Assembly (NCBI RefSeq): GCF_048403405.1
Contig: NZ_CP183129.1
Length of the DNA stretch: 64,000 nt
From: Escherichia coli
GTDB taxonomy: Bacteria > Pseudomonadota > Gammaproteobacteria > Enterobacterales > Enterobacteriaceae
Strand: one strand, 5' to 3'
The notes below the pieces were generated by a model. That model was not told the origin of the DNA, ran no database searches, and saw only the letters and a program-made list of their open reading frames with translations. Below, piece by piece: positions 13,106 through 49,408 of this stretch; the stretch's first letter is position 1, and each line of letters opens with the position of its first letter. Made by a program: the position numbers and the translations under genes.

Positions 13106-13180
13106 GCCTGATGCGACGCTGCGCGTCTTGTCAGGGCTACGGTGATTCATCGGATACGCCACTCTGACGGCGCATCCGAC
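13106..13180. repeat. REP-type palindromic elements between gpmA and aroG
   Basis: gcctgatgcgacgctgcgcgtcttgtcagggctac matches the REP consensus seen again at 48.5 kb; a second imperfect palindrome cggatacgcc...ggcgcatccg follows. Confidence 0.6.
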
Positions 13181-18066: not shown

Positions 18067-18083
18067 TTGGTGGGTCGTGCAGG
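18067..18083 (-). pseudogene. 17-nt remnant of a tRNA-Lys 3' end
   Basis: tggtgggtcgtgcagga is identical to the 3' terminal 17 nt (read as reverse complement) of the intact tRNA-Lys copies, then diverges; it abuts the operon terminator. Confidence 0.5.
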
Positions 18084-18165
18084 ATGACTCGCTTCGCTCG
18101 CCCTACGGGCCGTTGCTGGCGCAACGTTATCCTTCACGCTTAACATCTGAGTTTGATGTTAAAAT

Positions 18166-18241
18166 TGGTGGGTCGTGCAGGATTCGAACCTGCGACCAAT
18201 TGATTAAAAGTCAACTGCTCTACCAACTGAGCTAACGACCC
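18166..18241 (-). tRNA. tRNA-Lys (anticodon UUU)
   Basis: 76-nt match to E. coli tRNA-Lys read on the minus strand (GGGTCGTTAGCTCAGTTGGTAGAGC...CACCA); encoded CCA. Confidence 0.95.
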
Positions 18242-18244
18242 GAG

Positions 18245-18320
18245 TGGTGGGTGATGACGGGATCGAACCGCCGACCCCCTCCTTGTAAGGGAGGTGCTCT
18301 CCCAGCTGAGCTAATCACCC
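18245..18320 (-). tRNA. tRNA-Val (anticodon UAC)
   Basis: 76-nt match to E. coli tRNA-Val (GGGTGATTAGCTCAGCTGGGAGAGC...); 3-nt spacer from the neighbouring tRNA-Lys. Confidence 0.95.
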
Positions 18321-18371
18321 GATACTGCGCTGGATACTACAAACTACTTCCACCGAACCCACCGTAATTAG

Positions 18372-18447
18372 TGGTGGGTCGTGCAGGATTCGAACCTGCG
18401 ACCAATTGATTAAAAGTCAACTGCTCTACCAACTGAGCTAACGACCC
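18372..18447 (-). tRNA. tRNA-Lys (anticodon UUU)
   Basis: Identical copy of the tRNA-Lys sequence. Confidence 0.95.
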
Positions 18448-18449
18448 GG

Positions 18450-18525
18450 TGGTGGGTGATGACGGGATCGAACCGCCGACCCCCTCCTTGTAAGGGAGGT
18501 GCTCTCCCAGCTGAGCTAATCACCC
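18450..18525 (-). tRNA. tRNA-Val (anticodon UAC)
   Basis: Identical copy of the tRNA-Val sequence; 2-nt spacer. Confidence 0.95.
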
Positions 18526-18560
18526 GATACTACGCTGGATACTACAACTAACTAGGTTAG

Positions 18561-18636
18561 TGGTGGGTCGTGCAGGATTCGAACCTGCGACCAATTGATT
18601 AAAAGTCAACTGCTCTACCAACTGAGCTAACGACCC
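18561..18636 (-). tRNA. lysT: tRNA-Lys (anticodon UUU)
   Basis: Promoter-proximal copy of tRNA-Lys in the array. Confidence 0.95.
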
Positions 18637-18800: not shown

Positions 18801-19592
18801 TTACATCGCGTTCAGACGTTTTTGTGCCTGTTTAGCGCCATCAGTACCAGGGTATTTACTGATAACCTGCTGGTATACGGCTTTCGCTTTTGCGGTGTCA
18901 CCTTTGTCCTGCATGATGACACCGACTTTAAACATCGCATCTGCAGCCTTTGGCGACTTCGGATAGTTTTTTACTACCGAAGCAAAATAGTACGCCGCAT
19001 CATCTTTTTTACCCTTGTTGTAGTTTAACTGACCCAGCCAATAATTGGCGTTTGGCAGGTAAGTTGAATCAGGGTAATTTTTGATGAAATTCTGAAATGC
19101 CACCATTGCGTCATCCTGGCGGGATTTATCCTGCACCAGCGCAATTGCTGCATTGTAATCCGTGTTTGCATCGCCGCTTTTCACCGGCGCGCCAGCATTC
19201 GCAGTACCAGCATCAGCTGTCGGCGTCGTTGATGCCGCCGCACCGCTTTGATCACCGCTGGTTGATTGCGCCGCTGCACCACCGCTGCTGAGGCTATCGA
19301 TCTGCAACAGGATCTGCTTTTGCCGCTCCACGACCTGATTCAGTTGATACTGATTTTCCTGAATCTGACCACGCAGGGAATCAATATCGGATTGATTATC
19401 AGAGAGTTGTTGCTGGAGTTGGGTTAAAAGCTGGCTGTGAGCATTTGAAATACGCTCAAGTTGAGTGACGCGGTCTTCGACCGAGCCTGAGCCGACACTA
19501 CTGATTGGTGCCTGAGCAAAAGCGGCCCAGGGGGCCGCTATACCAACCAGTAACGACAGACTCAATAGTTGATGTCTGAAGTTACTGCTCAT
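18801..19592 (-). CDS. cpoB: Cell division coordinator CpoB (YbgF)
   Basis: 263 aa; signal peptide, coiled-coil and C-terminal TPR repeats; last gene of the tol-pal cluster. Confidence 0.93.
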   Translation of the reverse strand: MSSNFRHQLLSLSLLVGIAAPWAAFAQAPISSVGSGSVEDRVTQLERISNAHSQLLTQLQQQLSDNQSDIDSLRGQIQENQYQLNQVVERQKQILLQIDSLSSGGAAAQSTSGDQSGAAASTTPTADAGTANAGAPVKSGDANTDYNAAIALVQDKSRQDDAMVAFQNFIKNYPDSTYLPNANYWLGQLNYNKGKKDDAAYYFASVVKNYPKSPKAADAMFKVGVIMQDKGDTAKAKAVYQQVISKYPGTDGAKQAQKRLNAM

Positions 19593-19601
19593 GCAATTCT
19601 C

Positions 19602-20147
<546 letters not shown>

Positions 20148-44215: not shown

Positions 44216-44255
44216 GTGTTCTGTCCATCCTTCAGTAATCGTTATCTTTTAAACC

Positions 44256-44286
44256 GTAGACCGACACCCTATCCACGTCGGTCTAC
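44256..44286 (-). other. Intercistronic stem-loop in the sucB-sucC spacer
   Basis: Perfect 10-bp inverted repeat gtagaccgac / gtcggtctac with an 11-nt loop, inside the 93-bp sucB-sucC spacer. Confidence 0.5.
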
Positions 44287-44308
44287 AGTGCAGGTGAAGC
44301 TTAAACTA

Positions 44309-45540: not shown

Positions 45541-48342
45541 TTATTCGACGTTCAGCGCGTCATTAACCAGATCTTGTTGCTGTTTCTGGTGAACGGACAT
45601 ATACCCTACCGCCGGAGAGGCGGAGGCCGGGCGGCCTGCATAACGCAGAGAAGCCCCAAACGGAATCACTTCACGGAAATGATGCTGGCTGCAGTACCAT
45701 GCGCCCTGGTTGAGCGGCTCTTCCTGGCACCAGACAAAATCCTTGACGTGAGCAAACTGCTGCAACACTTCCTGCATCGCTTTATGCGGGAACGGGTAGA
45801 GTTGCTCGATACGCACAATGGCGACATCGTGTTGATTGTTCTTACGGCGTTGTTCCAACAGGTCGTAATAAACCTTACCAGAACACATCACTACGCGCTT
45901 CACACCCTTCGGATCAAGCTCGTCGATTTCACCAATGGCAGGCAGGAAGGTGCCGTTCGCCAGTTCTTCGAGGCTGGAAACCGCCAGCGGATGACGCAGC
46001 AGGGATTTCGGCGACATCACGACCAGCGGACGACGCATCCCGCGCAGCGCCTGACGACGCAGCATGTGGTAAACCTGTGCCGGGGTAGACGGTACGCACA
46101 CCTGCATGTTTTGCTCAGCACAAAGTTGCAGATAACGTTCCAGACGCGCGGAGGAGTGCTCCGGCCCCTGCCCTTCGTAACCGTGCGGCAGCAACATCAC
46201 CAGACCACACATCCGGCCCCATTTCTGTTCGCCAGAGGAGATGAACTGGTCGATAACCACCTGAGCACCGTTAGCGAAGTCACCGAACTGTGCTTCCCAG
46301 ATAGTCAGAGTGCGTGGTTCTGCGGTGGCATAACCGTATTCAAACGCCAGCACGGCTTCTTCTGACAGTACGGAGTCCCAGACACGAAACGCGCCCTGAC
46401 CGTTATGGATGTGTTGCAGCGGCGTGTAAGTGGAACCGTTAGACTGGTTGTGGATCACCGCGTGGCGGTGGAAGAAGGTACCGCGACCGGAGTCTTCACC
46501 CGACAGGCGAACCGGAATGCCTTCGTCAACCAGCGTGGCGTAAGCGAGGTTTTCCGCGCCGCCCCAGTCGAACAGTTTCTCACCAGCTGCCATCGCCTGG
46601 CGATCGCCATAAATCTTGGCAACGCGAGACTGCATTTCAACTGCTTCCGGCACCGTGCTGATGCGTTTAGCCAGTTCCTGCAGGCGCTTCATCTCAACTT
46701 TGTTCGGGTACTCTTCGTCCCATTCGTGGTTGAGGTACGGCGACCAGGTGAAAGAGTGCATGTTCATCGGACGCCACTCTGCCACTACGCAATCGCCAGC
46801 ATCCAGCGCATCGCGGTACAGGTTAACCATCTCGGTGGCATCTTCGAGCGTCGCCACTTTTTCTTGCTCCAGCTTGTCAGCGTAGATTTTGCGCGGCGTC
46901 GGATGTTTTTTGATTTTCTGATACATCAGCGGCTGGGTTGCGCTCGGCTCGTCGGCTTCGTTGTGGCCATGACGGCGGTAGCACACCAGGTCGATGAAGA
47001 CATCACGTTTAAAGGTGTTACGGAAATCGAGCGCCAGACGGGTCACAAAGGCAACGGCTTCCGGATCATCCGCGTTAACGTGGAAAATCGGTGCCTGAAC
47101 CATCTTACCGATATCAGTACAGTACGGCGTCGAACGGGCATCCAGCGGGTTAGAGGTGGTGAAGCCAACCTGGTTGTTGATAACGATACGTACCGTACCG
47201 CCAACTTCATAGCCACGCGCTTTCGACATGTTCAGGGTTTCCTGAACCACGCCCTGCCCGGTCACTGCGGCGTCACCGTGGATGGTAATTGGCAGCACTT
47301 TGTTGCTGCTCGGCTCATCAAGTCTGTCCAGACGGGCACGAACAGAACCGATAACGACCGGGCTTACAATCTCAAGGTGAGACGGGTTAAACGCCAGCGC
47401 CAGGTGTACCAGGCCGCCATCGGTCTGGAAGTCAGACGAGAAGCCCATGTGGTATTTCACGTCACCCGTGCCGAGGTGTTCTTTATGTTTACCGGCAAAC
47501 TCGTCGAACAAGTCTTGCGGTTTTTTACCCAGCACGTTCACCAGCACGTTCAGACGACCACGGTGCGCCATCCCAAGAACCACTTCGCGGGTGCCGCTGT
47601 TGCCAGCGTGGCGGATCATCTCTTTAAGCATCGGGATTAACGCGTCACCGCCTTCCAGCGAGAAGCGTTTTGCACCAGGGAATTTTGCACCGAGGTAACG
47701 TTCAAGGCCTTCAGCGGCGGTCAGTTCGCTTAAGAAGCGTTTTTTCTCTTCGCTATTGAAAGTCGCGCGACCAGACTCGATACGCTGTTGGATCCAGCGT
47801 TTTTCTTCGGTGCTGGTAATATGCATATACTCGGCGCCAATCGGGCCGCAGTAGGTTTGCTTGAGTGCTTCCAGCAGTTCGCCGAGTTTCATGGTTTCTT
47901 TGCCGCTGGCAAATGAACCGACGTTGAAGGTCTCCTGGAAGTCTGCTTCGGTCAGATCGTGGAAAGACGGATCCAGATCGGCCACTTTATCTTGCTGCCA
48001 CAGTCCCAGCGGATCGAGATTCGCATGCTGGTGACCACGGAAGCGGTATGCGTTAATGAGCTGCAGGACTTTAACCTGCTTCACATTGGTGTCAGGGTCG
48101 GAGATCGTTGAAGAGTAACGTGAAGCGTCTTTCGCCAGGCGGCGGAAATATTCACGCGTTTGAGAGTGGAATTGATCCGGTTTGACTCCCGTACCAGGTA
48201 ACTGCTGGAACGTCGAACGCCAGTTAGCGTCAACCGAGTCAGGATCGGTTAAGAAGTCTTCATAGAGCTGTTCTATCCAGCTCTGGTTTGCGCCAGAGAG
48301 GTAAGAAGAGTCCAACCAGGCTTTCAAAGCGCTGTTCTGCAT
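45541..48342 (-). CDS. sucA: 2-Oxoglutarate dehydrogenase E1 component
   Basis: 933 aa, [30 protein letters not shown]...; recognised as SucA. Confidence 0.97.
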
Positions 48343-48503
48343 CGTGATCCCTTAAGCATCTTTTTTATGCTTACTTCGCCGTGGATACTACCACGCACAG
48401 TGATGTGCGTGCCGGGGTTCACTTGCGAGCTCTTGTCTACGTAGTGGCTCGCGAAGGAACCTTTAAAAACTGTCTTAGTGTCAGGGGCAGTTTTTAAAGA
48501 TTT

Positions 48504-48690
48504 CCTGCATTTCTTTTGTAGGCCGGATAAGGCATTCACGCCGCATCCGGCGCTGTTTGCCTGATGCGACGCTTGCGCGTCTTATCAGGCCTACGATTTC
48601 TGCATTTCTTTTGTAGGCCGGATAAGGCGTTCACGCCGCATCCGGCACTGGTTGCCTGATGCGACGCTTGTGCGTCTTATCAGGCCTGGG
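48504..48690. repeat. Two tandem BIME-type units (paired REP palindromes) in the sdhB-sucA spacer
   Basis: About 93-bp unit ...tttgtaggccggataaggcRttcacgccgcatccggcRctgKttgcctgatgcgacgcttgYgcgtcttatcaggcc... occurs twice in direct tandem with 4 substitutions; each unit holds two inverted REP sequences. Confidence 0.8.
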
Positions 48691-48691
48691 T

Positions 48692-49408
48692 TTACGCATT
48701 ACGCTGCAACAACATCGACTTGATATGGCCGATGGCGCGCGTCGGGTTCAGCCCCTTCGGACATACACTGACGCAGTTCATGATGCTGTGACAGCGGAAT
48801 ACACTGAATGCATCGCTCAAACCGTCGAGGCGGCTGTCAGTCTCGGTATCACGGCTATCGATCAGGAAACGATATGCCGCTAACAAGCCTGCCGGGCCGA
48901 TAAACTTATCGGGATTCCACCAGAAAGACGGACAAGAGGTTGAACAACATGCGCAGAGAATACATTCATACAACCCGTCGAGTTTTTCGCGCTGCTCTGG
49001 CATCTGTAAATGCTCGCGAGCTGGCGGATTTTGTCCATTATTCAACAGGTAAGGCTTAATTTTCTCATATTGCGCATAGAATTGTCCCATGTCTACCACC
49101 AAATCGCGGATCACCGGTAAACCTGGCAGCGGGCGAATCACAATCTTCTTGCCTGGCTGGTTGAGTGCCGAAATCGGGGTAATACAGGCCAGACCATTCT
49201 TGCCGTTCATGTTCAGACCGTCGGAACCGCACACACCTTCACGGCAGGAGCGGCGGAACGACAGGCTGGGATCTTTCTCTTTCAGCTGGATAAGCGCATC
49301 CAGCAGCATCATGTCACGACCTTCTTCCGCTTCCAGGGTGTAATCCTGCATACGCGGAGCATCATCAACATCCGGGTTATAGCGATAAATTGAAAACTCG
49401 AGTCTCAT
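48692..49408 (-). CDS. sdhB: Succinate dehydrogenase iron-sulfur subunit
   Basis: 238 aa; Cys clusters for the three Fe-S centres; recognised as SdhB. Confidence 0.97.
   Translation of the reverse strand: MRLEFSIYRYNPDVDDAPRMQDYTLEAEEGRDMMLLDALIQLKEKDPSLSFRRSCREGVCGSDGLNMNGKNGLACITPISALNQPGKKIVIRPLPGLPVIRDLVVDMGQFYAQYEKIKPYLLNNGQNPPAREHLQMPEQREKLDGLYECILCACCSTSCPSFWWNPDKFIGPAGLLAAYRFLIDSRDTETDSRLDGLSDAFSVFRCHSIMNCVSVCPKGLNPTRAIGHIKSMLLQRNA

Follow-up and report, generated by a model that had tools for sequence, protein, structure and literature searches.

The spacer between sdhB and sucA in the Escherichia coli window analysed here (the window being the whole stretch of 64,000 nucleotides) contains an array that is, judged by its sequence, a textbook BIME-2, the Y/Z2 family of repetitive extragenic palindromes (REPs) of E. 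coli. The best explanation as a whole, which is very probably correct, is a BIME-2 array of two tandem 95-bp units that modulates the mRNA of the operon and is dispensable. The array is one of several alleles at a locus where the number of units varies between 0 and 5 and where the Z2-Y-Z1 form of K-12 also occurs. It is real but ordinary, as both the kind of element and the locus are already known; REPs at the sdhB-sucA locus have been noted since the K-12 sequence was determined.

The sdhCDAB-sucABCD operon lies on the minus strand of the window, with sdhB as the open reading frame at 48692-49408 and sucA as that at 45541-48342, both on the minus strand, and the spacer between them spans 48343-48691 (349 bp). 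The names sdhB and sucA were taken from the RefSeq annotation of genomes identical across a 549-bp region, 48243-48791; an assembly artefact was ruled out by the 100% identity of this region in independent complete RefSeq genomes. A repeat search found two direct repeats at 48502-48592 and 48597-48687, 91 nt each, 95% identical and 95 nt apart from start to start, and Tandem Repeats Finder reported 48499-48687 with period 95, 2.0 copies, 94% matches, 1% indels and a score of 343. Each 95-bp unit is composed of one Y-type and one Z2-type REP, inverted relative to each other and seen as two imperfect palindromes per unit, GCCGGATAAGGC..GCCGCATCCGGC and GCCTGATGCGACGC..GCGTCTTATCAGGC (inverted repeats I6-I9). 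On the mRNA strand the order is Z2 - 7 nt - Y - 18 nt - Z2 - 7 nt - Y, and the first REP stem begins 7 nt downstream of the sdhB stop codon. The features of the spacer, together with a REP elsewhere in the window, are as follows.

48692-48694, minus strand: stop codon (TAA) of sdhB, from the open reading frame 48692-49408, the sequence and the annotation in identical genomes
48654-48689, minus strand: Z2-type REP number 1, nearest to sdhB, with 3 mismatches to the Z2 consensus
48647-48653, minus strand: S-type 7-nt linker of unit 1, from the sequence and the Rfam alignment
48613-48646, minus strand: Y-type REP number 1, an exact match to the Y consensus and the Y half of the naRNA4 match
48595-48612, minus strand: inter-unit linker GATTTCTGCATTTCTTTT, a copy of the flank 48499-48517
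48559-48594, minus strand: Z2-type REP number 2 with the GTAG foot intact, exactly the Z2 consensus (naRNA4, 79.6 bits)
48552-48558, minus strand: 7-nt short linker of unit 2, from the sequence
48518-48551, minus strand: Y-type REP number 2, nearest to sucA, in register with Y number 1 with one substitution (naRNA4 model)
48499-48517, minus strand: original flank, co-duplicated into the inter-unit linker, from sequence comparison, folds and other spacers
48455-48506, minus strand: AU-rich, conserved leader hairpin of sucA, its stem about 18 bp long, from inverted repeat I4, folds and cross-genus spacers
48343-48454, minus strand: rest of the conserved sucA 5' leader, from the fold and a 12-sequence alignment
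48425-48452, 48392-48411 and 48353-48373, minus strand: leader hairpins, from the fold
48348-48353, minus strand: Shine-Dalgarno sequence AAGGGA of sucA, from the sequence
13106-13140, plus strand: slightly degenerate Z2-type REP (Z2 half of naRNA4, 33.1 bits, E = 3.5e-4)

The repeat searches bear out the initial annotation, which had described two head-to-tail BIME units, each an inverted REP pair, in the sdhB-sucA spacer. Its figure of about 95% identity between the units also stood (94-95%), but the unit length of about 93 bp has to be replaced by a period of 95 bp. The interval assigned to the element, 48343-48691, does contain the repeat, but the repeat itself occupies only 48499-48689, and the remaining 156 bp (48343-48498) are the sucA leader. 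Z2 number 1, the Z2 half of the naRNA4 model match of 86.8 bits, is predicted to fold as a 12-bp hairpin at 48654-48685. Its foot reads CCCAGG instead of CGTAGG, so that the GTAG tetranucleotide is lost there; the GTAG/CTAC foot is present in Z2 number 2 and in both Y REPs. No repeat_region features are given for the spacer in the K-12 RefSeq record. Two small open reading frames, 48324-48539 (minus strand, 71 aa) and 48659-48883 (plus strand, 74 aa), cross the REP palindromes and are unannotated in the RefSeq genomes inspected; they were rejected as genes.

The REPs were typed by core-motif searches and by an Rfam model, and they match the Y and Z2 consensus sequences with 0-3 mismatches. The family palindrome of about 35 bp was recognised independently by the Rfam model RF02564 (naRNA4), which at full length matches the two units on the plus strand with 86.8 and 79.6 bits (gathering score 59.5); on the minus strand, along which the operon is read, it gives 53.7 and 46.7 bits, under this threshold. 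The palindromes are extragenic, lying 3' of the sdhB stop codon and 5' of the sucA start codon. The feature is far beyond chance, the z-score of its RNA fold being -10.2, and the palindromes are not unique to the locus: the whole spacer used as a query was found at a median of at least 37 places per genome, in 5,425 of 5,426 E. coli genomes. BIME-2 elements consist of z2 and y REPs in inverse orientation, with a short linker, in tandem and with a strain-variable copy number (Ton-Hoang et al., PMC3333891), and every one of these sequence-level properties was found in the array, including tandem conservation within the locus and variation of copy number among strains. The label BIME given earlier was therefore right and can be refined to BIME-2 (Y and Z2 with a short linker), not BIME-1. 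BIME-1 resembles the array in its inverted REPs, but it is built of Y and Z1 with a long L linker containing an IHF site, whereas the window has neither a Z1 REP nor a long L linker; furthermore, BIME-1 elements are single copies (PMC3333891).

The model RF02564 was built on the 77-nt Y-l-Z2 unit of REP325, an array found between yjdM and yjdN that is composed of six such units with identical spacers between them (PMC4550694). The array shares with REP325 and with the sucB-sucC BIME-2 the alternation of Y and Z2, the short linker, the identical inter-unit spacers, the strain-variable number of copies and the role of IS1397 target. It has only two units, in contrast to the six of REP325, and its intra-pair linker is 7 nt long against 13 nt for the 'l' linker of REP325 (6 nt shorter in the Rfam alignment). 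From other BIME-2 elements it differs in that the first Z2 is without the GTAG foot and in that the inter-unit spacer is a duplicated, locus-specific flank.

The origin of the array can be read from this inter-unit spacer. The linker 48595-48612 and the flank 48499-48517 agree at 18 of 19 positions and differ by one indel. Read on the mRNA strand, the flank is TGCAGGAAATC, which is largely kept in the REP-free E. coli alleles and in the other genera examined, with single-base variants of the TGCAGGAAA(T/C)C flank in some of those genera. Such retention marks the flank as sequence of the locus rather than a generic BIME motif. A 45-nt probe for tandem units, spanning the Y-linker-Z2 junction, was found in 1,376 genomes at a median of one place and a maximum of four places per genome, all of them chromosomal, and the one example checked was located in the sdhB-sucA spacer. 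Since the linker is a copy of the local flank and the junction occurs at no more than four places per genome, a Z2-Y-flank unit was duplicated in tandem in place. Thus the array grew where it stands, and the duplicated unit includes 18-19 nt of local flank. The number of copies would then change by unequal recombination or slippage between the 95-bp direct repeats, or by recombination promoted by TnpA(REP), which has been proposed for BIMEs (PMC3333891).

Variation among E. coli strains was measured by a search with 400 bp of sucA joined to 400 bp of sdhB, the spacer being omitted, so that the match span gave the spacer length; 5,425 of 5,426 complete genomes were matched. The distribution of lengths was taken from an evenly spaced sample of 60 genomes, and the anatomy behind each length was read from representative examples.

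Spacer of 199-203 bp, 19 of 60 genomes: no REP, only a small hairpin GCCGGGGAAATCCCCCGGC
Spacer of 300-301 bp, 24 of 60 genomes: Z2-Y-Z1, the K-12 form, an 'atypical BIME'
Spacer of 311 bp, 1 of 60 genomes: Z2-Y-Z1
Spacer of 349 bp, 4 of 60 genomes: two units
Spacer of 360-361 bp, 6 of 60 genomes: two units
Spacer of 455-456 bp, 3 of 60 genomes: three units
Spacer of 550 bp, 2 of 60 genomes: four units
Split match, 1 of 60 genomes: strain SK0832, with an IS1397 insertion

The 11-bp differences between 349 and 360 bp and between 300 and 311 bp reside in two leader hairpins, outside the BIME. A census with allele-specific junction probes against the 5,426 complete E. coli genomes gave the following classes.

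REP-free allele: 1,761 genomes (32.5%)
Z1-bearing K-12 type (Z2-Y-Z1): 2,255 genomes (41.6%)
Two or more tandem units (2-5): 1,376 genomes (25.4%)

The K-12 type was counted with a probe across the Z1-flank junction, which was found at one place in each of its 2,255 genomes; a probe with the whole Z1 REP was unspecific and matched 5,405 genomes. The tandem junctions number 1,828 in the 1,376 genomes, and the maximum of four junctions per genome indicates up to five units. The exact junction variant of the window is present in 290 genomes. Among haplotypes 99.8-100% identical to the flanks of the window, spacers of 349, 455/456 and 550 bp and REP-free spacers of 200 bp are intermixed, which indicates that the number of units changes on short evolutionary scales. 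The strain-to-strain length variation that the initial annotation had proposed, with a comparison of spacers as the way to check it, was confirmed by these counts, the sampled lengths ranging from 199 to 550 bp.

In strain SK0832, IS1397 was found in the loop of the first (sdhB-proximal) Z2, with a CAA target duplication (L007:3401-5196). IS1397 is known for its specific insertion into the palindromic units of BIMEs (references 10-11 of PMC3333891). The insertion in SK0832 probably uncouples sucABCD from the sdh promoter.

A second spacer of the operon was also compared. The sucB-sucC spacer of the window (44216-44308) has about 93 bp and a non-REP hairpin, GTAGACCGAC..GTCGGTCTAC; in strain 118UI, whose 549-bp region 48243-48791 is identical to that of the window, the sucB-sucC spacer has 274 bp and four Y/Z2 REPs (L010:4793-5066). 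In K-12 the sucB-sucC BIME-2 is a strong gyrase site (PMC6379681). The difference between the window and 118UI points to a second BIME-2 presence/absence polymorphism in the same operon, varying independently of the first.

The ancestral state was approached with a cross-species set, collected by a degenerate pattern for the first sucA codons and comprising 20 loci, one genome per species, of which 16 span the spacer. Directly 3' of sdhB, GCCGGGGAAG.GATTCCCCGG was found in Salmonella enterica arizonae and diarizonae, in several Citrobacter and in the E. coli 0-unit allele. This small GC hairpin, common to REP-free E. coli, Salmonella and Citrobacter, shows that the REP-free allele is ancestral and that its hairpin gave way to the BIME. 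At the same position a Y-like and Z1-like pair of its own was found in some Citrobacter, and four Z2-Y units in E. albertii; in Kluyvera, Phytobacter and Kosakonia the position is taken by repeats of the CCCTCTCCC..GGGAGAGGG type, unrelated to the REP array. The site just 3' of the sdhB stop codon thus took up repeats more than once.

The sucA leader beside the array is of another nature. The BIME does not include the AU-rich hairpin at 48455-48506, whose base is overlapped by the flank 48499-48517. The stem of this hairpin, GGAAATCTTTAAAAACTG..CAGTTTTTAAAGGTTCC, is near-invariant in the Escherichia, Salmonella, Citrobacter, Kluyvera, Phytobacter and Kosakonia sequences examined (a comparison that includes spacers L015, L016, L025, L026 and L027), and its apex varies from about 10 nt in S. 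arizonae and 14 nt in E. coli to a hairpin-forming insert of up to about 150 nt elsewhere. A search of 48455-48506 against Rfam gave no family match. In the alignment of 12 leader sequences, from Escherichia and six other enterobacterial genera, 35 pairs were predicted, 6 of which are maintained by compensating substitutions, as in GCGAGC/GCTCGC versus GCGGAC/GTCCGC. Two leader haplotypes were found in E. coli, which differ by compensated hairpins and by the 11-nt loop expansion that gives spacers of 349 versus 360 bp.

A very strong structure is predicted for the RNA of the spacer (minimum free energy -147.7 kcal/mol, z = -10.2). Single REP hairpins are predicted with 12 bp and -21 to -22 kcal/mol, pairings of neighbouring REPs as interrupted duplexes of about 30 bp with -46 to -47.5 kcal/mol, and pairing of Y REP with Y REP in the ensemble with 26 expected base pairs; these folds give several competing pairings and ignore co-transcriptional folding and ribosomes. 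On this modelling, REP duplexes as long as these could plausibly be cut by RNase III.

For K-12, a 10-kb read-through mRNA has been reported, and both termination and an additional promoter have been placed in the sdhB-sucA interval (PMC6393394, PMC4161252). A mechanism was proposed from K-12 data and REP biology, in which the whole sdhCDAB-sucABCD operon would be transcribed through the array on the minus strand and the REPs in the mRNA would fold as stable 12-bp hairpins or pair with their neighbours over about 30 bp. These structures would serve as RNase III substrates, splitting the 10-kb read-through mRNA into sdh and suc halves; they would stop 3' exonucleases, thereby protecting the upstream sdhCDAB fragment; and, being 7 nt from the sdhB stop codon, they may impede terminating ribosomes. 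With regard to the last step, REPs that follow a stop codon at a distance below 16 nt were reported to reduce the translation of the gene before them (PMC12306157, citing Liang et al. 2015). Modulation of mRNA processing and stability is most likely the effect of the array, by analogy with these systems, and an effect on local DNA topology or gyrase binding is possible. Gyrase cleaves BIME-2 in vivo, with a preference for Y REPs and independently of transcription (PMC6379681), and by the same analogy the Y REPs of the array are likely gyrase sites on the DNA.

The nearest known system is the K-12 cluster itself, which occupies the same locus, has the same first Z2-Y pair and the same downstream leader as the window, and belongs to an operon that is read through and processed (PMC5371410, PMC9731577, PMC6393394). 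It differs in its 300-bp spacer with one Z2-Y pair and a Z1, whereas the allele of the window has two Z2-Y pairs and no Z1. RNase III processing is the activity documented for the K-12 spacer (PMC5371410, PMC9731577), a point that the initial annotation had left out. RNA-seq of an rnc mutant gave 758515 as a sensitive position (PMC5371410); mapped onto the K-12 spacer, it falls at nt 110, within the Z1 REP. In addition, three RNase III sites are reported for K-12 upstream of the GlnZ site (PMC9731577). Since the K-12 site in the Z1 REP is absent from the two-unit allele, the cleavage pattern is not directly transferable to the window. The AU-rich hairpin at 48455-48506 is an alternative candidate for an RNase III substrate, outside the BIME.

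A role of the array as stabiliser or partial terminator, which the initial annotation had raised, is one that we infer. In 1987, Newbury and co-workers reportedly described REP mRNA stabilisers in intercistronic spacers, of the malE-malF type. There, too, the hairpins separate, within one transcript, cistrons that have to yield different amounts of product, and the hairpins of the window are predicted to be stable. By this comparison, the upstream sdh segment may be stabilised at sdhB-sucA. About a third of E. coli genomes do without the element, so that it is non-essential and any role must be modulatory. Nearly all genomes share flanking genes of at least 99% identity; with 32% of the genomes REP-free between near-identical genes, any effect of the array would be small or compensated.

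Of the other readings, that of an array without cellular function, selfish or neutral repeat DNA in an insertion-tolerant spacer, deserves the most weight, doubtful as it is. It is favoured by the absence of the array from 32% of the genomes, by a copy number ranging from 0 to 5, by the other repeats that Kluyvera, Phytobacter, Kosakonia and some Citrobacter carry at the same position, by the IS1397 insertion in the array and by the likewise polymorphic presence of the BIME-2 in the sucB-sucC spacer of the same operon. A transcribed element is not physically inert, however, as is indicated by the RNase III sensitivity of the K-12 REP cluster and by the very strongly structured RNA. The sole difference between this reading and an array that modulates the mRNA is whether the effects matter for fitness. 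It is improbable by comparison that the array acts mainly on transcription, attenuating or terminating it so as to uncouple sdhCDAB from sucABCD, with more units giving less read-through. BIME-associated attenuation is said to have been described by Espeli and co-workers in 2001. In favour of it, K-12 RNA-seq gave an internal terminator with partial read-through and a secondary promoter (PMC4161252, PMC6393394). On the other hand, no intrinsic terminator (GC-rich hairpin followed by a U-run) was found in 48200-48800 on either strand, and 3' ends at REPs are commonly stalls of exonucleases, not termination sites. The 0-unit allele, moreover, has a GC hairpin at the same place, which argues that a 3' end there is independent of the BIME.

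The Rfam matches themselves could be taken for genes, the units encoding a naRNA4-like nucleoid-associated sRNA on the plus strand, antisense to the operon, that bridges DNA cruciforms with HU. This is very improbable. Both units do exceed the RF02564 gathering score on that strand, and according to Qian et al. (PMC4550694) REPs are for the most part transcribed and HU-mediated condensation requires an RNA of two hairpins, Y and Z2. The model, however, represents one Y-l-Z2 repeat unit, so that any BIME-2 copy matches it. The known transcription is on the minus strand, where both scores fall below the threshold, no promoter-like site was found in 48200-48800 on either strand, nor a terminator-like one, and a third of E. 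coli genomes have no unit at the locus. Sub-threshold scores on the transcribed strand and the lack of promoter and terminator indicate that the matches reflect the repeat family and not an sRNA gene. In E. coli spacers, naRNA4 matches are better read as BIME-2 units than as sRNA genes.

Beyond annotation the finding matters little. Results obtained on the K-12 sucA leader, with its 300-bp spacer and Z2-Y-Z1, are not automatically valid for the 58% of sequenced strains that are REP-free or tandem. The locus offers a natural allelic series, from 0 to 5 units and with the Z1 form, for the effects of REP arrays on operon mRNA. It is conceivable, though a long shot, that the number of units (0, Z2-Y-Z1 or 2-5) is a lineage-specific dial of the expression of succinate dehydrogenase relative to 2-oxoglutarate dehydrogenase, the unit number acting through RNase III processing, 3'-end protection and stalling at the termination codon. 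In that case the copy number of a repeat would give E. coli lineages heritable differences in the stoichiometry of the TCA cycle, and the sucB-sucC BIME-2 of the same operon would work independently as a second dial. A large tuning of sdh/suc expression by the number of units between lineages is unlikely.

Elsewhere in the window, a REP related to those of the array lies between the convergent genes aroG and gpmA. The initial annotation had given a single REP at 13106-13180 in this place; the related REP is there, but it occupies only 13106-13140 and is followed by a second, very degenerate palindrome. The latter, TCGGATACGCC..GGCGCATCCGA at 13141-13180, adjoins the Z2-like REP and is possibly what is left of a Y REP; the pair would then be a decayed BIME rather than a single REP. 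The other Rfam matches at gathering level are all on the minus strand, at 19563-19701 and 18068-18636, and comprise the CpoB/ybgF thermometer (142 bits), five tRNA genes and an RtT element, which are ordinary for this region of E. coli.
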